Source: Escherichia phage AnYang. Taken from it: a stretch of 64,000 bases of DNA. Below, one piece after another: positions 1-7,083 of the stretch; the stretch's first letter is position 1; each line of letters begins with the position of its first letter. The position numbers and the translations under genes are program-made. The DNA lies in sequence record MK234886. One strand, 5' to 3'. A model generated the notes under the pieces. It ran no database searches, was not told where the DNA came from, and saw only the letters and a list, made by a program, of their open reading frames with translations.

Positions 1-130
1 CGAACATCTGTGCTTTAAAATTATTCCATGAACCTTGGTCGGCAATGAAATCCCAATCAGAATTTTCGATATACTTACTTTCAATCAGACCAGCATGGTG
101 CAGTGCACGAGAACCAATAACTAACATCAT
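1..130 (-). CDS. hypothetical protein, 5' part only (3' end lies beyond window start)
   Basis: ATG at 128-130 (minus) with GAGGAAA RBS upstream; reading frame MMLVIGSRALHHAGLIESKY... stays open to position 1. Confidence 0.4.
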   Translation of the reverse strand, partial: MMLVIGSRALHHAGLIESKYIENSDWDFIADQGSWNNFKAQMF

Positions 131-149
131 AATATTTTCCTCAGTAAAC

Positions 150-389
150 TTAAATTTCGGCAACATAAGTATTATGCAATTCCCACATATCATCGGAATT
201 ACTCTCAACGATAGGAATTATCTCATTAGAGATTTCTTCTGCATAAGGGTCATTGATACAATGGGCATCTTCAAAACGAACACCGTAATCAGACTTCTTA
301 TAAGCAAAGCCATAAATCTTTTTAAACTTGGCACGAGTAATGCGTACCGGTTCATTAGACTTATCGGACATCGGAGCGTAATACCACAT
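150..389 (-). CDS. hypothetical small protein (79 aa)
   Basis: ORF track; GAGGAG RBS 5 nt upstream of ATG; early promoter-like element immediately upstream. Confidence 0.55.
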   Translation of the reverse strand: MWYYAPMSDKSNEPVRITRAKFKKIYGFAYKKSDYGVRFEDAHCINDPYAEEISNEIIPIVESNSDDMWELHNTYVAEI

Positions 390-416
390 ATGTTCTCCTC
401 ATGTTTGTGTAGGGTA

Positions 417-445
417 ATAGTAACACGTATTTTTAGAGTTGTACA
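417..445 (-). promoter_or_regulatory. sigma70-type early promoter (TGTACA-N17-TACTAT, TG-extended) on minus strand
   Basis: hexamers read on minus strand; -10/leader/RBS module near-identical to the one at 56099-56158. Confidence 0.45.
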
Positions 446-762
446 TCACTTCTGCAATATTCTAAAAATAATTTATCGTTGTCTACCGTATCCCAACGAC
501 GCCAAGATGGATTCCAGACCAGAGCGTTGTCACCACAATCATTGAGCTTAAAATGGTCGTAGTACATAGCTATACGTTTAGTCTCGTCGCCAGAGAACCC
601 CAGTATAGGCTCACCGTGGGTATGATACATATGATGGTGCATTGAGAGGTCGCATTTGTAAAACATCTCACGTTTACCACGAACGAACAAGAAGGCTTGC
701 CCATTCATATAGAATTCTTTATCTGTTTTCAAAAGATATTTGAATACTGAATCTTTATGCAT
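433..762 (-). CDS. hypothetical His-rich protein (SMHHHMYHTHGEP); ORF track start 783, start 762 preferred
   Basis: internal ATG at 762 has AGGAGG RBS with 4-5 nt spacer; ATG at 783 has weaker signal. Confidence 0.5.
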   Translation of the reverse strand: MHKDSVFKYLLKTDKEFYMNGQAFLFVRGKREMFYKCDLSMHHHMYHTHGEPILGFSGDETKRIAMYYDHFKLNDCGDNALVWNPSWRRWDTVDNDKLFLEYCRSDVQL

Positions 763-792
763 AAGTCCTCCTATCACATCCATGTGGTTAAA

Positions 793-1020
793 TTATTTTC
801 CTAACGAAACACGAGTAGGTTTTTTACCAAAATAGTCCTCATAAGAACCATCTAAACGACCCGCTTTAGACCGACAATATGAATCGTACTTTTTGTAATA
901 AGTCATCTCAGTATTATAACGTGGGTGTCTATCAGCCATAATAATACTTAGTGGCCAACCTTTGGCATAATCGCGAAGACCATTTATTTTACGAATGTAT
1001 CGTTTTTTCAATTTTAGCAT
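793..1020 (-). CDS. hypothetical basic protein (75 aa)
   Basis: ORF track; start ATG overlaps last codon and stop of upstream paralog E (ATGCTAA), translational coupling. Confidence 0.5.
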   Translation of the reverse strand: MLKLKKRYIRKINGLRDYAKGWPLSIIMADRHPRYNTEMTYYKKYDSYCRSKAGRLDGSYEDYFGKKPTRVSLGK

Positions 1021-1238
1021 GAGCTTGGGTACCAGATTTTACCATCGGAACGAGCAACGAAGGTGCGACCAGCTTCTTCACCATAACAAGAGCTATTCAG
1101 CCAATCTTCGAGACGAACTTCACCGTCATAATCATCGAGCTCAACGCCAAAATCCTGAGCAGAAGCCATATCTTTTACTTTCTTATACAGTGCAGCCAGT
1201 TCAAGTGCAGCTTTTTCTAATTCATTAATATCAGTCAT
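1014..1238 (-). CDS. small acidic protein, paralog E of C-terminal W-x-S-S-Cys family (74 aa; also internal WLNSSC)
   Basis: internal ATG at 1238 with GGTGA RBS overlapping stop of paralog D; ends ...GKIWYPSSC. Confidence 0.6.
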   Translation of the reverse strand: MTDINELEKAALELAALYKKVKDMASAQDFGVELDDYDGEVRLEDWLNSSCYGEEAGRTFVARSDGKIWYPSSC

Positions 1239-1248
1239 TTTTATCACC

Positions 1249-1458
1249 TTAGCAAGACATAGAGGAGCTAAACCAGAAACCTTCACCTTCTGGAATACCG
1301 TAATCATCACGGGCCCATTCGTAATCATCATATTCCGGACTAGAAGCTGGAATATATTCTTCGCCACCAGCGTGGAAGTGTTGACCTGTTTCGTCAGCCA
1401 CGGACTGGCCTTTACGTACTAATTCACGGATTTGTTTTTCAATTTCATCAATAGTCAT
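1249..1458 (-). CDS. small acidic protein, paralog D (69 aa), ends GFWFSSSMSC
   Basis: ORF track; AAGGAAA RBS overlapping stop codon of paralog C. Confidence 0.6.
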   Translation of the reverse strand: MTIDEIEKQIRELVRKGQSVADETGQHFHAGGEEYIPASSPEYDDYEWARDDYGIPEGEGFWFSSSMSC

Positions 1459-1467
1459 TTTATTTCC

Positions 1468-1665
1468 TTAGCATTCGTAAGAGGAGGACACCCAAGAGGT
1501 ACCACTAATAGTAATACAACCGTTATAAAGCGTGATATGTCGTTCTAGGTCACGAACACCATCGATATAGATATCAGCTTCTTCGCGTTCTTCTTTACAA
1601 ATCTGGATAACGTTTTCAATAGCTGCGGCTGCAGTACGGATTGCACAATCTAGTTCACGAGACAT
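1468..1665 (-). CDS. small acidic protein, paralog C (65 aa), ends TSWVSSSYEC
   Basis: ORF track; AAGGAA RBS overlapping stop codon of paralog B. Confidence 0.6.
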   Translation of the reverse strand: MSRELDCAIRTAAAAIENVIQICKEEREEADIYIDGVRDLERHITLYNGCITISGTSWVSSSYEC

Positions 1666-1674
1666 AATAATTCC

Positions 1675-1956
1675 TTAACATTCAGAAGAAGAGGACACCC
1701 ATCCACCATTTTCTAGGCTGGTGGTGTAATCATGTTGGTTTACAATAGCGTACTGAGCTTCACCGTATTCTTCCCAGTGGGCAAGGTCGGCTTTCAGGGC
1801 GCCAGGAGAATAATAGTCACCGCCCATACCGCGAGCAGGGTATATATTAAAATGAGTCTCATATTTGTTAGCAATTTCCTCAGCACGACGAATAGCTTTA
1901 TGAATATCATTTACTGCTTCAGCCAGCTCTTTATTTTTACGGTAATCATTCATCAT
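1675..1956 (-). CDS. small acidic protein, paralog B (93 aa), ends GGWVSSSSEC
   Basis: ORF track; AAGGAAA RBS overlapping stop codon of paralog A; shares KYG/GDY core with paralog A. Confidence 0.6.
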   Translation of the reverse strand: MMNDYRKNKELAEAVNDIHKAIRRAEEIANKYETHFNIYPARGMGGDYYSPGALKADLAHWEEYGEAQYAIVNQHDYTTSLENGGWVSSSSEC

Positions 1957-1965
1957 AGCGTTTCC

Positions 1966-2256
1966 TTAGCACATTGCCGAAGAGGAGACCCAAGCACCGA
2001 CTGTAACGACACCGTTTTCAACTTCACCGCCATTGTTTTCAATTTCATCTTTAAACCACTGGGAGCATTCATAACCGACAGGATAATATGTACGGCCTGA
2101 ACCATAATCACCTGTACCGAATTGGATACCATACTTATCGGCAATAGCTTCACATTCATGTTCGATGGTATTCACTTTATTCAGAAGAGCATAGATAGCC
2201 TTTTCTGCAGATTTCTCATCATTGTGTTCTGGGATTTCAATTTCAATTTTATTCAT
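1966..2256 (-). CDS. small acidic protein, paralog A (96 aa), ends GAWVSSSAMC
   Basis: ORF track; ATGA start/stop overlap with upstream membrane protein gene. Confidence 0.6.
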   Translation of the reverse strand: MNKIEIEIPEHNDEKSAEKAIYALLNKVNTIEHECEAIADKYGIQFGTGDYGSGRTYYPVGYECSQWFKDEIENNGGEVENGVVTVGAWVSSSAMC

Positions 2257-2606
2257 GATTTACATTCCTTAATAAAGGTTTCAAGGTCATTACGATTGGT
2301 TTGTTTTACATACTCATTATAATTAGCCATCGATACAGCATATCTCTTACGGATGGGAGCATTCAAAGCATTTGTATGGCAAATATCATACACTACAGGG
2401 ATAAAATAAGCCACGACAGCCGGAGCGATTATCATATAGAAACCCATCTCAATAGGTGTGACTCCTTCGATTACAGCCATAACCACGGTCATTACCAGGC
2501 CAATTAGGCCGCCAAGCATGGCTGTAACAATCCCTAATAATAAATTGGCACCAATATCATATTCAGCCAATTGATAAACATGTGATGAAAGACTAGGCCG
2601 CTCCAT
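2253..2606 (-). CDS. small membrane protein, two predicted TM helices (117 aa; ORF track start 2780, internal ATG 2606 preferred)
   Basis: hydrophobic stretches GANLLLGIVTAMLGGLIGLVMTVVMAV and GFYMIIAPAVVAYFIPVV; AGAGG RBS before ATG 2606. Confidence 0.45.
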   Translation of the reverse strand: MERPSLSSHVYQLAEYDIGANLLLGIVTAMLGGLIGLVMTVVMAVIEGVTPIEMGFYMIIAPAVVAYFIPVVYDICHTNALNAPIRKRYAVSMANYNEYVKQTNRNDLETFIKECKS

Positions 2607-3135
2607 TTTGAACCTCTTTAGCGTATTCGCGACATTCAGCAATAAAACGATTAAGCTTCCGTTGTTGTTTTCGAATCTCTGATGTATACTCATTAGCCAA
2701 AATAATAAGCTCATCTTTATCGTAATTTTTAATATCCGAATAACTCGGGCGGCGGTCGACCATACCAAAGTGGTCACCATTTTCTAACATCAAATAGCAT
2801 ACTAAATGGTAATCATCGTCAGCATCAACAAGCTGTTTACAATCACTTGGTTCATTTAAAGCGTATACTGAATAGCATAATCCAGCGAATTCCACTCGTT
2901 GAATACCTAGATTTAAGTCAATAATTTCTAAAGCTTCTGCAAAAGAAAGGTCCTCAGCTAAAGCAAAGATAAAAGGTAATTTGCTAGTGTATCCACGGCT
3001 ATTTGTTCGACTTAAGAAATCATTGGAATAACCTAAGTCTTGGCGAATTCTATAAAGAACTGAATTAGTTTCATGGGAAAGACCACTATGCTTAAACCAG
3101 TCAATATTTGATATCAGGTCGTCATATAAACTCAT
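2593..3135 (-). CDS. hypothetical protein (180 aa)
   Basis: ORF track; GGAGAGGAG RBS upstream of ATG. Confidence 0.5.
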   Translation of the reverse strand: MSLYDDLISNIDWFKHSGLSHETNSVLYRIRQDLGYSNDFLSRTNSRGYTSKLPFIFALAEDLSFAEALEIIDLNLGIQRVEFAGLCYSVYALNEPSDCKQLVDADDDYHLVCYLMLENGDHFGMVDRRPSYSDIKNYDKDELIILANEYTSEIRKQQRKLNRFIAECREYAKEVQNGAA

Positions 3136-3183: not shown

Positions 3184-3777
3184 TTACTTAAGTGAATTAA
3201 TGTAGTCGTCGATATCGGCAGAAGTCGTATCCATTCCAACTTGTGGGCCTTTAAACGTTTCTACACGCAGCAGGGTATCTTCAATATCAATCTTAGTCAG
3301 TGCAGCGATTTCAACAACATCATCGGCAGTAGCAATACCAAGGGCAGCCATATTGCGAGTTTCACGGATGTACTCGAGCTTAACGGCCAGTTCCTGACGA
3401 GAGTCATCAAGTTCCTTGACCTTCAGTTTAATTTCATTACGCATTTCGATATAATCATCGGCCTTCTTACGAAGCTGAGTAGCTGTACGACGATAAAGGA
3501 GGCCAAGTTTAGCATGTACCTGGACATCAGCACCTTCGGCAATCAGTTTACGAATTTCACGTTCTTTAGAAGCGGCAAGCTGGTCTTTTTCATTAGCCAA
3601 CGCACGAATACGTTTTTCTTCATTCACAGACTTAACATGAGCGGTCTGGAGTTCAGTAATTTTATCAATCAGGGTAGAAGCAGCTTTGGTGTATTGGTCT
3701 TCGATTGACAGGTTCTGAGCCATTGCAGTACCCAGTTTAGAACGGATGAATTCAACGATTTTCTTTAAAGTGTTCAT
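3184..3777 (-). CDS. hypothetical coiled-coil protein (197 aa)
   Basis: ORF track; AAGGAAA RBS; heptad-rich charged sequence. Confidence 0.55.
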
Positions 3778-3819: not shown

Positions 3820-3848
3820 ATTATACCCTGTCCTCTGAGGTTTGTAAA
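3820..3848 (-). promoter_or_regulatory. sigma70-type early promoter TTTACA-N17-TATAAT with overlapping stem-loop GAGGACA...TGTCCTC
   Basis: hexamers and inverted repeat read on minus strand upstream of 3184-3777 gene. Confidence 0.5.
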
Positions 3849-3852
3849 TATT

Positions 3853-4251
3853 TTATTTCATTTTTGCGAGGCAAATTTCATTGGCTTCCCATTGAGCTTG
3901 CTTAATAATAGCTTTGGATACAGGAACCCTTTGGCCATAAGTTTTTGACGTTGAGAGAACAATATGTTTGTTTGCTTCATTATGCCAGCCCCATGATTTT
4001 TCGCCATGAGTACCTTTAACTACAGCTGACACCTCAACAGAGCAACCACCATCAGAAATCTTGGTTTCGACAATCCATTCATTTCTTTCGACGGCTTCAA
4101 GTTCTAATCTAGTTTTTTCTTCATACATAGCGGCCCAATCAGTTTTTGCCAAGTTGAAAGTAAGAGCTTTCTCCAATTCTTTGGCAGCTTTTTGTTGTTC
4201 AGGCGTTAATGAATTATACAACTCTTGCATTTCTTTATCTTCGATATTCAT
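3853..4251 (-). CDS. hypothetical protein (132 aa)
   Basis: ORF track; GAGGAG RBS. Confidence 0.5.
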   Translation of the reverse strand: MNIEDKEMQELYNSLTPEQQKAAKELEKALTFNLAKTDWAAMYEEKTRLELEAVERNEWIVETKISDGGCSVEVSAVVKGTHGEKSWGWHNEANKHIVLSTSKTYGQRVPVSKAIIKQAQWEANEICLAKMK

Positions 4252-4276
4252 TATGTTCTCCTCAAATTACGGGCTC

Positions 4277-4306
4277 ATAATATCTTAATCATGAGCCCGT
4301 GTAAAC
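4277..4306 (-). promoter_or_regulatory. early promoter GTTTACA-N17-TATTAT with stem-loop CGGGCTCAT...ATGAGCCCG
   Basis: read on minus strand upstream of 3853-4251 gene. Confidence 0.45.
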
Positions 4307-4308
4307 AA

Positions 4309-4572
4309 TTATTTCATATTATTGAAATAATCTTCCGCATCAAAATCGTTATCATGATAAACTTTGGTAGACAATTTAGCATAACCTTCAGCTGAGAACA
4401 TATTAATCACAACCTTAATTGTATACCATTGTCCATCATCATTACCCATTACTGCGTAAGTTTCAAATATAGGATGGTCATCACCTATAACCTTAATATC
4501 GTTAACAGTAGCACCAAATTCTTCAGGAACGCATTTCATAAAGAAATTAAACAATTCACCATAATTATCCAT
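4309..4572 (-). CDS. hypothetical protein (87 aa; ORF track start 4587 is GTG, ATG at 4572 preferred)
   Basis: AAGGAGAG RBS upstream of ATG 4572. Confidence 0.5.
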   Translation of the reverse strand: MDNYGELFNFFMKCVPEEFGATVNDIKVIGDDHPIFETYAVMGNDDGQWYTIKVVINMFSAEGYAKLSTKVYHDNDFDAEDYFNNMK

Positions 4573-4607
4573 TTTACTCTCCTTCACTCTGTTGTTTTGA
4601 TAGGTCT

Positions 4608-4636
4608 ATAGTATCATGTTTAAAGGAGGTGTAAAC
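4608..4636 (-). promoter_or_regulatory. early promoter GTTTAC-N17-TACTAT (TG-extended)
   Basis: read on minus strand; member of repeated TGATACTATAGRCCTATCAAAAC module. Confidence 0.5.
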
Positions 4637-4673
4637 AACTTTGTGAAATTATTTTTAGTCTAACCCCCAAAAA

Positions 4674-4689
4674 GGAGACCGAAGTCTCC
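4674..4689 (-). terminator. rho-independent terminator GGAGAC-UUCG-GUCUCC + U-run (minus strand)
   Basis: hairpin followed by TTTTTGGGGG on minus strand, downstream of 4695-5303 gene. Confidence 0.55.
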
Positions 4690-4694
4690 TTTCA

Positions 4695-5303
4695 TTATTT
4701 ACGAGTCTTTTCGAACTGGGCTGCGTCACCTGCAAGGCGGCCGGCTTGGCGAAGTTTGTTATTGATTTCTTCGCGCATAGGCTGGGTATACTTAAGGCCT
4801 TCAACCGTCAGATAGAGACGATACAGGTCTGGGGTATCCAGGTTGTTAATGTGTTGACCATTACGAAGAGCGTTGAATTCACGAACAAGGTGTTTAGTTT
4901 CAGATTCGATTTCAGAAACTAAAGAAGCCAGTTGGTTATATTTTTTAACTATAGTGCTGGTGTCAAACTTGATTTTAGGTTTAGGAGCTTCTTTTACAGG
5001 TTCTGGTTTAGGCGTCGGTTTCGGTGTTGCAACTTTGGGCTGAGCCGCAGGTTTAGCAACAGGAGCTTTAGTAGGTTTAGTAGCGCCACCAGCTACGATA
5101 TCTTTAAAAGCTTTGGAAGCTTTGTAATATTCTTTCTGGTTACTGGTGTCGAGCCCATACATATCATAGACGTTTTTAAAGAATTCGGTGGTGGTTTTAG
5201 TCCCAGAAATTTTATCATAAGCTGCTTGCCACATATCTTTAGTCATGCGAACGCCGGCTTCACTCAGAATGCTTTCGTTCAAAAATTCATTGTAAGTTTT
5301 CAT
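4695..5303 (-). CDS. internal-protein-like (IPIII-like) packaged protein with N-terminal capsid-targeting-type leader MKTYNEFLNES and Lys/Pro-rich centre
   Basis: leader resembles T4 IP CTS MKTYQEFIAE; late promoter TATAAATA upstream; 202 aa. Confidence 0.55.
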   Translation of the reverse strand: MKTYNEFLNESILSEAGVRMTKDMWQAAYDKISGTKTTTEFFKNVYDMYGLDTSNQKEYYKASKAFKDIVAGGATKPTKAPVAKPAAQPKVATPKPTPKPEPVKEAPKPKIKFDTSTIVKKYNQLASLVSEIESETKHLVREFNALRNGQHINNLDTPDLYRLYLTVEGLKYTQPMREEINNKLRQAGRLAGDAAQFEKTRK

Positions 5304-5331
5304 TGGTATTTCCTAAGTTAATTAACTTATC

Positions 5332-5339
5332 TATTTATA
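5332..5339 (-). promoter_or_regulatory. T4-type late promoter TATAAATA (minus strand)
   Basis: exact TATAAATA about 30 nt upstream of ATG 5303, leader AACTTAGGAAATA. Confidence 0.55.
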
Positions 5340-5345
5340 CAAAAA

Positions 5346-5365
5346 GCCCAACCTTTCGGAAGGGC
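5346..5365 (-). terminator. hairpin GCCCUUCCGAAAGGUUGGGC + U-run (minus strand)
   Basis: inverted repeat followed by TTTTTG on minus strand, downstream of 5372-5926 gene. Confidence 0.5.
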
Positions 5366-5371
5366 TGTAAA

Positions 5372-5926
5372 TCAGTTCTTATAGAATCGGAACGGGTTTA
5401 CGTGGAAGGCTAACATAGCCTTAGGGATTTTACGAGACAAAAGACTCTTAAGTTTCCAACCACAGTACACGCGAAGGTAAAAGGTAATACCTCCAACCTT
5501 AAGATAAGGAACCGAAGCAAAAACTCCCCATGCGTCATCATTCCACATCCATAGCCACCCGTGATGAGCTTTATCAGGGGAACCTGATTCCACATCAGGA
5601 TTACCGCGATAATGGAATTCTGAGCTACAATCACGTCCGAGTTTATGGTAAGCAAAGTTATAAGCTTTATTTCGCCATAGCCAAGCTACTCTCTGGAGAT
5701 AAACGCCAAAAGGTAGTTTTCTGATTTTAGCCCAACGTTTAATGTGACCTTTATCACCGTCAATTGGATTATCGTATGTCATCATCCAATCAAAGCCATA
5801 TGGTAATTTACCGGTCTTTTTATTGTGGAAAGGGACTACAAAAGGTGCAAGGATAACAGCCAGAACCATAGAGATAAAATCTAGAGGGACCAACAGAACC
5901 CAACTCAAATATTTTAAAAGTTTCAT
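5372..5926 (-). CDS. hypothetical membrane-anchored Trp-rich protein (184 aa), late-expressed
   Basis: N-terminal hydrophobic helix WVLLVPLDFISMVLAVILAPFVV; TATAAATA late promoter and AGGAAA RBS upstream. Confidence 0.55.
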   Translation of the reverse strand: MKLLKYLSWVLLVPLDFISMVLAVILAPFVVPFHNKKTGKLPYGFDWMMTYDNPIDGDKGHIKRWAKIRKLPFGVYLQRVAWLWRNKAYNFAYHKLGRDCSSEFHYRGNPDVESGSPDKAHHGWLWMWNDDAWGVFASVPYLKVGGITFYLRVYCGWKLKSLLSRKIPKAMLAFHVNPFRFYKN

Positions 5927-6225: not shown

Positions 6226-6300
6226 TGGTATCCCGCCCTGGGATCGAACCAGGACCGCAAACTTAGAAGGATCGTATGCTATCCATTACACCAGCGGGAC
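6226..6300 (-). tRNA. tRNA-Arg (anticodon UCU), CCA encoded
   Basis: 75 nt cloverleaf read on minus strand: 7-bp acceptor stem, T-arm CCUGG-UUCGAUC-CCAGG, anticodon loop CUUCUAA. Confidence 0.85.
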
Positions 6301-6305
6301 GTAAT

Positions 6306-6971
6306 TCAAAATTTTATTTTACGGCCTTTATTCCAACCTTCAGGAATAATATCCGTTTTGTTAATACGTTTAGAAACTTTTTCTTCTAAAGAATGAATCC
6401 ACATTTTTCCATATCCGGAATTATTTTCACCTTGTTGGTGTTTATTTCTGGCGTGAGATTCTTTCATTTTATTTTTGGTTTCATCTGAATGGGTCTTACC
6501 CAAGAAAGATTTAGTATTTGAAAATTTCTCTCTATACTTAGGATTATCCCAAAGTTGTTTAAACCTTTCTGAACCCATTTTACGATATTTTTCTTTAAGG
6601 TCTGGGTCGTTCTCAAATCTGGTTTTAAAAGCGGCAACTCCTTTTAAGGAAGCTTCTTTCTTTTTATCTAAATATTCTTCAGTGTTTAAATGGTCCCAAC
6701 CACCTTCACCGCCTAATTTCAAATTATAAACATCGGGGCGCTTTAAAAACTCTTCAGTCACAATATTCTTTTCTGACTCAAACATAGAGATTTTATCGTC
6801 AAAGAACTCTAATATTTCTTTAGAGAAATTTTCTATACCGTATTTGGCCTGGGCCCTTTTCAAGAGTTTACCGGAACCAAAATATGCATCATTCAAATTT
6901 TCGGTTGAATGGGCTCCTATATAGATTTTATTATTAATTTTGTTTGTTATTTTATAAGTGTAATGGAACAT
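6306..6971 (-). CDS. segB: GIY-YIG homing endonuclease, SegB-like (221 aa)
   Basis: N-terminal YTYKITNKINNKIYIGA motif; sits between two tRNA genes as segB does in T4; AGGAGA RBS. Confidence 0.75.
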   Translation of the reverse strand: MFHYTYKITNKINNKIYIGAHSTENLNDAYFGSGKLLKRAQAKYGIENFSKEILEFFDDKISMFESEKNIVTEEFLKRPDVYNLKLGGEGGWDHLNTEEYLDKKKEASLKGVAAFKTRFENDPDLKEKYRKMGSERFKQLWDNPKYREKFSNTKSFLGKTHSDETKNKMKESHARNKHQQGENNSGYGKMWIHSLEEKVSKRINKTDIIPEGWNKGRKIKF

Positions 6972-7012
6972 AAATATCTCCTATTTCTAAGAGTATTTAT
7001 GTTCTCAAAATA

Positions 7013-7083
7013 TGGCCCTGGGTGGAATCGAACCACCATCCAGCGATTATGAGTCGCTCGCTTGACCGTCCAGCTACAGGGCC
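7013..7083 (-). tRNA. tRNA with CAU anticodon (Ile2/Met type), CCA not encoded
   Basis: cloverleaf on minus strand: acceptor GGCCCUG/CAGGGCC, anticodon stem-loop GCGA-CUCAUAA-UCGC, T-arm GGUGG-UUCGAUU-CCACC. Confidence 0.8.

Follow-up and report, generated by a model that had tools for sequence, protein, structure and literature searches.

Small acidic phage proteins with a shared C-terminal tail and their linkage to a nucleotidyltransferase-like gene

A stretch of 64,000 nucleotides from Escherichia phage AnYang (record MK234886; the whole of it is called the window below) carries near its left end five consecutive minus-strand open reading frames (ORFs) of 65-96 codons, the products of which end alike in a tryptophan, a short run of serines and a cysteine, and, at its very edge, the beginning of a gene for a nucleotidyltransferase-like protein with the domains DUF7277 and DUF7275 (nt below). 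Over its first 5 kb the window shares 97% identity with Enterobacteria phage vB_EcoM_IME281 and 92% with JS98, and the source is by its sequence a JS98/IME281-like T-even phage (Straboviridae, Tevenvirinae, Dhakavirus). The array lies between homologues of T4 e.2 and e.6, on the downstream side of the tRNA cluster. A preliminary description of this DNA had reported the five ORFs with their endings, including a second, internal copy of the motif in the last of them (WLNSSC), and all of these were found as described. The genes and the junctions between them, the latter read from the sequence, are the following:

1966-2256, minus strand: paralog A, 96 residues, 'GDYGSGRTYYP' subtype, ending in ...GAWVSSSAMC (tail WVSSSAMC at 1969-1992)
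1957-1965, minus strand: junction of A and B, TGC-TAA-GGAAA
1675-1956, minus strand: paralog B, 93 residues, 'YGMGG' subtype, ending in ...GGWVSSSSEC (tail WVSSSSEC at 1678-1701)
1666-1674, minus strand: junction of B and C, TGT-TAA-GGAAT
1468-1665, minus strand: paralog C, 65 residues, divergent short form, ending in ...TSWVSSSYEC (tail WVSSSYEC at 1471-1494)
1459-1467, minus strand: junction of C and D, TGC-TAA-GGAAA
1249-1458, minus strand: paralog D, 69 residues, ending in ...GFWFSSSMSC (tail WFSSSMSC at 1252-1275)
1239-1248, minus strand: junction of D and E, TGC-TAA-GGTGA
1014-1238, minus strand: paralog E, 74 residues, 'double-tail' subtype, ending in ...KIWYPSSC (terminal WYPSSC at 1017-1034; internal WLNSSC, followed by YGE, at 1086-1103)
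1-130, minus strand: first 43 codons of nt, MMLVIGSRALHHAGLIESKYIENSDWDF..., the rest lying beyond the left edge

At each of the four junctions the TAA stop runs into the Shine-Dalgarno sequence of the next gene, 9-10 nucleotides from its ATG, just as had been noted earlier; this is consistent with translational coupling, and such packing is ordinary for T-even early genes. The products are small and acidic as claimed, with isoelectric points (pI) of 4.2-5.1 and net charges of -6 to -11. Among the 569 stop-to-stop ORFs of at least 40 residues in the window the tail is unique to these five. The KYG/GDY-type core that had been assigned to four of them is present in A, B and D, where it consists of the end of a helix and a Y-G-x-G-G-x-Y-Y-P hairpin; it is rearranged in E and absent from C. 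In keeping with this, A, B, D and E match phrog_899 (E 1.4e-23, 2.6e-20, 2.2e-13 and 4.9e-10, respectively), and A, B and D match a hidden Markov model (HMM) of the family (E 6e-24, 1.4e-25 and 2.8e-21); for B, tblastn gave matches in 282 phage records. Paralog C, which lacks the Gly-rich hairpin, belongs to a separate group, phrog_4882 (E 2.4e-36), and matches the family HMM weakly (E 9e-4); hhalign aligns just its N-terminal helix with the family (probability 84%), and it is tied to the other four by that helix and the tail alone. The five N-termini (MNKIEIEI..., MMNDYRKN..., MSRELD..., MTIDEIEK... and MTDINELE...) show no evident resemblance, on inspection, to the T4 capsid-targeting sequence, and the paralogs are acidic, in contrast to the basic internal proteins of T4.

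A profile of the five paralogs was searched against 1.84 billion representative proteins and recovered 47 clusters, all but one of 69-115 residues; the exceptional match of 4,728 residues (P0010) was rejected as an artefact in which about 30 weak repeat matches are summed in an adhesin-like protein. A second search, with a 50-sequence profile, gave 115 more-redundant clusters, all 'hypothetical' proteins lacking Pfam domains and encoded on contigs of up to ~395 kb. Scans of the five paralogs and three distant homologues against Pfam, NCBIfam and PADLOC detected nothing above noise, and both phrog_899 and phrog_4882 are listed as of 'unknown function'. By these searches the family is large, confined to phages and unnamed; genomes have 1-5 copies, which places this window at the top of the range. 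Its members share a common layout, namely an N-terminal helix ending in ...EAExIADExG-x-x-F, usually a Y-G-M-G-G-T-Y-Y-P hairpin, a variable and very acidic insert, and a C-terminus of the form G-x-W-x-[S/A/P]-S-S-x-x-C. The invariant or near-invariant columns are A39, F46, G54, Y57, W89, S92, S93 and C96, so that conserved polar side chains (two Ser and the Cys) are found only in the tail.

When the tail is defined as W-x-[S/A/P]-S-S-(x0-3)-C at or at most 2 residues from the C-terminal end, it is carried by 149 of 152 family proteins as well as by all five window paralogs, a count with an ascertainment bias in that the search profile itself contains the tail; at loci reached by way of nt, without recourse to the tail, the ending is nevertheless the same. 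The spacing is exact, with Cys last, in 128 of the 152, and in homologues with a W-x6-C ending Ser(-4) is kept in 128 of 129 and Ser(-3) in 127 of 129. The three exceptions are two proteins that look truncated (P0051 and P0129) and one with a shortened tail ending in W-Q-S-S-S-C (P0097). The terminal Cys is the sole cysteine in 91 of the 152 proteins, and the median pI is 4.46. Absence of the motif from homologues in other phages had been named beforehand as the outcome that would speak against the preliminary description, and the result is decisively the opposite, the tail recurring in very different phages with differing codons and intergenic contexts; conservation at the level of the protein, which had been proposed from the window, is thereby upheld.

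The same data bear on the idea that the recurring ending is a by-product at the nucleotide level, i.e. that what recurs with each gene is a junction for ribosome binding or recombination and not a selected peptide. It could draw on the overlap of stop codon and Shine-Dalgarno sequence at all four junctions, on the stretch TGGGT(C/G)TCCTC(T/C)TC that paralogs A-C have in common, and on the terminal K-E codons of the gene upstream of A, which double as the Shine-Dalgarno sequence of A. However, the Trp codon is 24 nucleotides away from the stop on its 5' side, much too far to be part of a ribosome-binding site, the first Ser is encoded by TCC in A-C and by AGC in D and E (the mixture of codon types noted earlier), and in other phages the tail is kept in other downstream contexts, including overlap with the start of nt. 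Being already contradicted by protein conservation across phages, this idea deserves practically no credence.

Pairwise identity among the paralogs is just 24-32%, against 82-100% between each of them and its orthologue in JS98, and counterparts of the A, B, D and E subtypes can be made out in distant phages. For these reasons the array is best read as a set of ancient, individually conserved paralogs, and the recent expansion implied by the earlier term 'amplified' does not hold. The E subtype, with an internal W-x-x-S-S-C-Y-G-E and a terminal W-x-x-S-S-C, has further representatives in Aeromonas phage P19, the rV5-like ESCO13 and the marine contig L035, and extra W-x-S-S units are found in the acidic insert of 22 members; repetition of this sort is what one expects of a short motif for recognition or modification.

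The gene nt had been overlooked in the preliminary description; on comparative grounds it is the conserved partner of the small family and defines its context. The portion within the window includes its G-S and D-x-D motifs, and full-length orthologues are present in IME281 and JS98, the latter being orf122, a homologue of RB69 ORF134c (DUF7275 E 1e-78, DUF7277 E 1e-26; phrog_2141). Three distant members of the small family, on a 371-kb jumbo-phage contig and on contigs of 62 kb and 75 kb, have a protein of ~300 residues with the same two domains encoded directly downstream. The linkage was surveyed by running HMMs of both families over all fetched loci, among them IMG/VR loci that had been found with a back-translated YGMGGTYYP DNA pattern and of which 10 of 13 had enough flank. 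Starting from the small family, nt lies on the same strand at a distance of 0-1.5 kb in every locus with enough flank (10 of 10 from IMG/VR, JS98, IME281, psageK4e, PSTCR6 and five metagenome contigs), and the two genes usually abut or overlap. In the circular record of Providencia phage PSTCR6 (MW057858.1) nt spans the origin, is unannotated and was found by joining both ends. Starting from nt, all eight close homologues have members of the small family nearby: three copies in ESCO13 and Ralstonia RSP15, two in Aeromonas P19, Xanthomonas BUDD and L035, four in L036, and one each in Acinetobacter Henu6 and L037.

If positions were independent, about 2% of random genes in an nt-bearing genome of ~170 kb would be expected no more than 1.5 kb from nt; the observed 100% adjacency across roughly 15 unrelated lineages cannot be chance. 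A six-frame scan of the whole T4 genome found neither the small family nor nt at E<=10, in agreement with the earlier remark that the family was not one recognised from T4. The nt gene is present in 732 of 50,697 phage records (~1.4%), and a blastn search with it against E. coli genomes gave no match and no prophage copy. The linkage suggests that the small family and nt constitute a conserved two-part phage module.

Across 40 diverse homologues the invariant residues of the Nt protein include G5(-S6), D24-x-D26 and E68. Its AlphaFold2 model (predicted local distance difference test, pLDDT, 91.4; predicted template modelling score, pTM, 0.85) has the order beta1(2-4)-G-S-helix-beta2(25-30, with D-x-D)-helix-beta3-beta4-beta5(63-72, with E68), followed by an all-helical domain. 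We take this combination of motifs and strand order to be that of the minimal Pol-beta-superfamily nucleotidyltransferases with a helical substrate-binding domain. Sub-threshold Pfam matches, which lend weak support, are to the nucleotidyltransferase family DUF6036 (E 0.005) and to DUF4269 (E 0.11), a member of the same clan, and several GenBank records label the protein 'putative nucleotidyltransferase'. Its motifs and predicted topology thus suggest a nucleotidyltransferase of the Pol-beta type to which a helical C-terminal domain is joined. The helical domain has its own invariant His and Asp residues (H127, H173, D192-H193-D194 and H197); that DUF7275 might be an HD-type phosphohydrolase is speculation, and hhalign against E. 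coli Cca lends it no support. A reading of the segment 'SHRYLKNSPH' as a HEPN motif was dropped, the second His not being conserved (it is F in JS98).

In other phages nt repeatedly adjoins genes for RNA ligase, polynucleotide kinase-phosphatase (PNKP) and phosphoesterase. In L037 an nt homologue is fused to an RNase H domain (464 residues, 4001-5395), with an RNA ligase and a cREC_REC gene 2-3 kb upstream. In the jumbo-phage and 62-kb contigs Gad2-family (anti-Gabija) and HD_4 (RelA/SpoT-type hydrolase) genes lie near the module (L019 105-1220 and 1-105; L021 11881-12438), which is why it looks there like part of an island for counter-defence and RNA repair. Furthermore, a 218-residue coiled-coil protein (phrog_7208) is encoded between the small-protein pair and nt in the ~370-kb jumbo-phage group (L019 8550-9206; L012 4749-5434).

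A close pairing of this kind could also mean that the small proteins inhibit or regulate nt, acting as acidic RNA mimics or antitoxin-like partners in its nucleic-acid cleft, with a potentially harmful nucleotide-adding activity being held in check or steered to particular RNAs. The tight adjacency, with frequent overlap of stop and start as in toxin-antitoxin pairs, and the strong acidity of the family speak for this, as do known nucleotidyltransferase toxins with small protein partners, such as MenT/MenA (PMC10435456) and MntA/HepT (PMC7641770). Yet such an arrangement has no need of up to five diverged paralogs per genome, the enzyme is not notably basic (median pI 6.2), and the defence-system library of PADLOC, which holds some toxin-antitoxin-type systems, produced no match. 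On balance we consider it clearly improbable.

For the small protein itself, an AlphaFold2 model of paralog A from a 50-sequence alignment (mean pLDDT 94.4, pTM 0.81) consists of a helix (14-42), a hairpin (46-58), a second helix (66-74), strands (78-91) and a short C-terminal turn (92-95). The tail Trp is placed in the last β-strand of this compact fold, the last six residues having a pLDDT of 82, and in the model the tail is thus not simply a floppy appendage. A fold search with the model returned no analogue in the PDB, and neither fold nor sequence similarity was seen to solved phage sponges, inhibitors and DNA mimics such as Tad1, Tad2, Acb2, Ocr and Arn. As modelled, the small protein is a real folded acidic alpha/beta domain of its own kind.

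Two chemical readings of the tail have to be weighed against these data. In the first, it is a metal or redox site, the terminal Cys, the Ser hydroxyls and the C-terminal carboxylate binding a metal across an oligomer, or the Cys serving as a thiol switch. The single terminal Cys is indeed nearly invariant, but one Cys per chain makes a poor metal site, two natural variants lack it altogether, no known metal-binding family or fold was matched, and the linkage to the enzyme would be left without explanation; we regard this as very improbable. In the second, the proteins are precursors of lanthipeptide-like ribosomally synthesised and post-translationally modified peptides (RiPPs), in which a Ser would be eliminated and the Cys added to give a thioether ring in the S-S-x-x-C tail. 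Here the S-x-x-C spacing is reminiscent of lanthionine ring motifs, and tandem precursor genes would adjoin an enzyme gene. The pattern of conservation is nevertheless the reverse, with an invariant 'core' and a variable body; the product is a confidently folded domain of 65-96 residues, the E subtype has S-S-C without a spacer, and Pfam detects no LanB/LanM/LanKC-type, cyclase, protease or exporter family among the neighbours. This reading is scarcely credible.

A more serious competitor, in line with the early effector family for host takeover or anti-defence that the preliminary description had put forward as a possibility, sees the paralogs as stand-alone early effectors, each of which would bind and inhibit a host protein or, as known T-even sponges and inhibitors do, sequester a small molecule, without being touched by nt; the tail would serve folding, oligomerisation or the binding of a ligand, and nt would work in the same conflict. 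They are small, acidic, early-placed proteins in a hyperplastic region of T-even genomes, where nearby T4 genes of like size have proven anti-defence roles, as in the case of Vs.3, which is the anti-defence protein TadIV-1 (PMC13243611). Several diverged paralogs per genome would fit multiple targets, and the Gly-rich hairpin might combine with the Ser/Cys turn into a pocket for a ligand. Against this, same-strand adjacency to one enzyme in ~15 unrelated lineages and the joint absence of both families from T4 remain without explanation, the model is unlike any solved sponge or inhibitor, and orthologues of the window and JS98 are 82-100% identical, i.e. they do not evolve fast as arms-race binders often do. 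We judge it rather unlikely, while giving it real weight. TadIV-1 was itself examined as a possible relative and rejected, as it belongs to a different family that is present in T4.

The reading that we prefer is that the tail is the element through which the small proteins engage the Nt enzyme, as its substrates, adaptors or regulators, and we hold it as a tentative possibility inferred from the linkage and the conservation of the tail. A shared docking or modification site, which the preliminary description had suggested, fits well with invariant polar residues confined to the tail, the internal recurrence of W-x-x-S-S and the adjoining nucleotidyltransferase-like gene. In its chemically simplest version, the enzyme would transfer a nucleotide onto one of the two invariant Ser hydroxyls, Ser(-4) or Ser(-3), and the internal W-x-S-S repeats would be extra modification sites; within the same frame, the small proteins might instead be adaptors or regulators/inhibitors of the enzyme. 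The differing bodies of the paralogs would endow the module with several specificities. Since genes for RNA ligase, kinase-phosphatase and phosphoesterase often surround nt in other phages, the module would most likely have its place in the damage and repair of RNA (tRNA) or in a related conflict of host and phage. The fullest form of this proposal, in which the enzyme adds a nucleotide to, or primes a short chain on, the tail of acidic carriers, with the conjugates serving RNA repair or counter-defence and the bodies giving specificities, we consider distinctly doubtful.

Several observations weigh against the involvement of the tail with the enzyme. Linkage of genes implies shared function, not a mechanism. 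As AlphaFold sets the tail Trp in a core strand, the tail may be unable to reach into an active site. In the window three unrelated small genes (listed below) part the array from nt, and in Xanthomonas BUDD the two family copies lie downstream of nt. No small partner was detectable beside five distant nt homologues (HMM E 1e-26 to 1e-40), namely those of DSS3_VP1, Vibrio V07, Vibrio K470, Streptomyces TunaTartare and Gordonia Bachita. Two members end without the Cys, that of Acinetobacter phage Henu6 in ...WSASSENS (L026 1171-1377) and one in the marine contig L035 in ...WTSSSQN (3202-3384). With regard to the enzyme assignment, hhalign of Nt against T4 NrdC.11 (RlaP; probability 0.09%), NrdC.10 and E. 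coli Cca aligned the D-x-D region only and was not significant, and profile searches of the PDB likewise gave nothing significant. In tblastn searches the alignment of the JS98 enzyme with Henu6 does not begin before residue 51, and that with several other Acinetobacter phages not before about residue 116; the N-terminal, nucleotidyltransferase part is thus divergent in these phages, and tail Cys and enzyme may co-vary.

Known systems offer partial parallels. Vs.4/Acb2 and Arn are, like Vs.3, small early T-even anti-defence proteins. The array resembles these in the size and acidity of its products, in its predicted early expression and in its setting in plastic genome regions; it differs in showing no sequence or fold similarity to them and in being absent from T4. 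None of Vs.3/TadIV-1, Vs.4/Acb2 and Arn is known to be tied to a neighbouring enzyme gene. In the GlnD-PII system a uridylyltransferase acts on a small signalling protein. By analogy, nt would likewise combine a nucleotidyltransferase with a helical domain rich in conserved His/Asp, beside a protein of ~100 residues, whereas the small proteins have neither the PII fold nor a corresponding Pfam match.

RlaP is an RNA-ligase-associated Pol-beta nucleotidyltransferase (PF10127; T4 NrdC.11) that adds 1-2 nucleoside monophosphates to damaged RNA 3' ends (PMC12776372; PMC7824862). As modelled, the Nt protein would share with it an N-terminal minimal nucleotidyltransferase and a C-terminal helical domain, and in several phages it is encoded beside RNA ligases and end-healing enzymes. 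However, it has no sequence match to PF10127 or NrdC.11 (the 40 homologues gave none to PF10127 at E<=10), T4 has RlaP and not nt, and a dedicated small-protein partner is not mentioned for RlaP in the consulted part of PMC12776372. In the MntA-HepT (MNT/HEPN) system a minimal nucleotidyltransferase AMPylates a small partner protein (PMC7641770). The analogy would lie in a two-gene module of a Pol-beta-type enzyme and an adjacent small protein, with a hydroxyl of the partner as the acceptor proposed here. In contrast to HepT, the partner is an acidic alpha/beta and not an all-alpha protein, has no Rx4-6H motif or HEPN Pfam match, and would offer as candidate acceptor a Ser in a C-terminal tail rather than a Tyr; moreover, the module is found in virulent phages and has up to five partner paralogs.

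As RlaP, MntA-HepT and GlnD-PII each differ from it in these defining respects, we place the module outside the known kinds, its function being read from context. Neither family, nor the pairing of the two, turned up in full-text searches of the accessible literature; phrog_899, phrog_4882 and phrog_2141 catalogue the sequences as of 'unknown function' and record neither the tail motif nor the pairing, and neither protein family has been assigned a name, structure or function. Among the carriers of nt are T-even relatives employed in phage therapy as well as rV5-like phages, Otagovirus and jumbo phages. A conserved gene pair together with an eight-residue tail is a rare case in which the 'dark matter' of phage early genes can be approached by direct tests, and the RNA ligase and end-healing neighbours tie the module to the survival by phages of host tRNA/RNA cleavage, beyond the T4 Pnk/Rnl1 paradigm. 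Since T4 lacks the module and its close relatives of the JS98 and RB69 groups have it, they provide a natural comparison for host range and escape from defence. Nucleotidylation of the tail, if true, would represent a previously unrecognised post-translational system of phages.

Upstream of the array there are three promoters of the T4-early type:

3820-3848, minus strand: nearest promoter, TTTACA-17-TATAAT
4277-4305, minus strand: second promoter
4608-4635, minus strand: third promoter

Between these promoters (3820-4635) and base 1 the minus strand shows neither a terminator-like site nor a MotA box nor a late promoter. The block containing the array is thus probably transcribed early from promoters near 3848-4635, which makes the early expression envisaged in the preliminary description plausible.

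The three genes that separate the array from nt (150-1020, minus strand), as delimited from ORF calls, a PHROG scan and the annotation of relatives, are:

793-1020, minus strand: basic protein of 75 residues, phrog_7065, its ATG overlapping the stop of paralog E (ATGCTAA)
433-762/783, minus strand: protein of 109-116 residues
150-389, minus strand: protein of 79 residues

They are missing in most other phages, where the small family abuts nt, and on that account they are probably lineage-specific insertions. The array genes are annotated in the close relatives IME281 and JS98 as well, save for paralog D in JS98 (EF469154.1), which is present at 5344-5553 without annotation. The T4 genes e.3, e.4 and e.5, which occupy the syntenic position, and nrdC.1-3 were checked as counterparts of the array and are unrelated.

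The gene immediately upstream of paralog A overlaps its start (ATGA). This gene (2253-2447, minus strand) and another one upstream of the array (2593-3135, minus strand) terminate in a second shared motif, F-[I/V]-x-E-C-[K/R] (...ETFIKECKS* and ...NRFIAECREYAKEVQNGAA*), and similar endings are seen in T4 e.3, e.4 and e.5 (T4 locus 3958-5271, syntenic). As the K-E codons of the former (AAGGAA) form the Shine-Dalgarno sequence of paralog A, this ending may in part reflect a constraint of the ribosome-binding site. Farther upstream, in the tRNA cluster (6226-7083, minus strand), tRNA-Arg(TCT) at 6226-6300 and tRNA-Met at 7013-7083 flank an ORF of 221 codons at 6306-6971; in JS98 a tRNA-Asn gene sits between the tRNA-Arg and tRNA-Met genes. 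The 221-codon ORF looks like an insertion of the homing-endonuclease type, comparable to segB in the T4 tRNA cluster.

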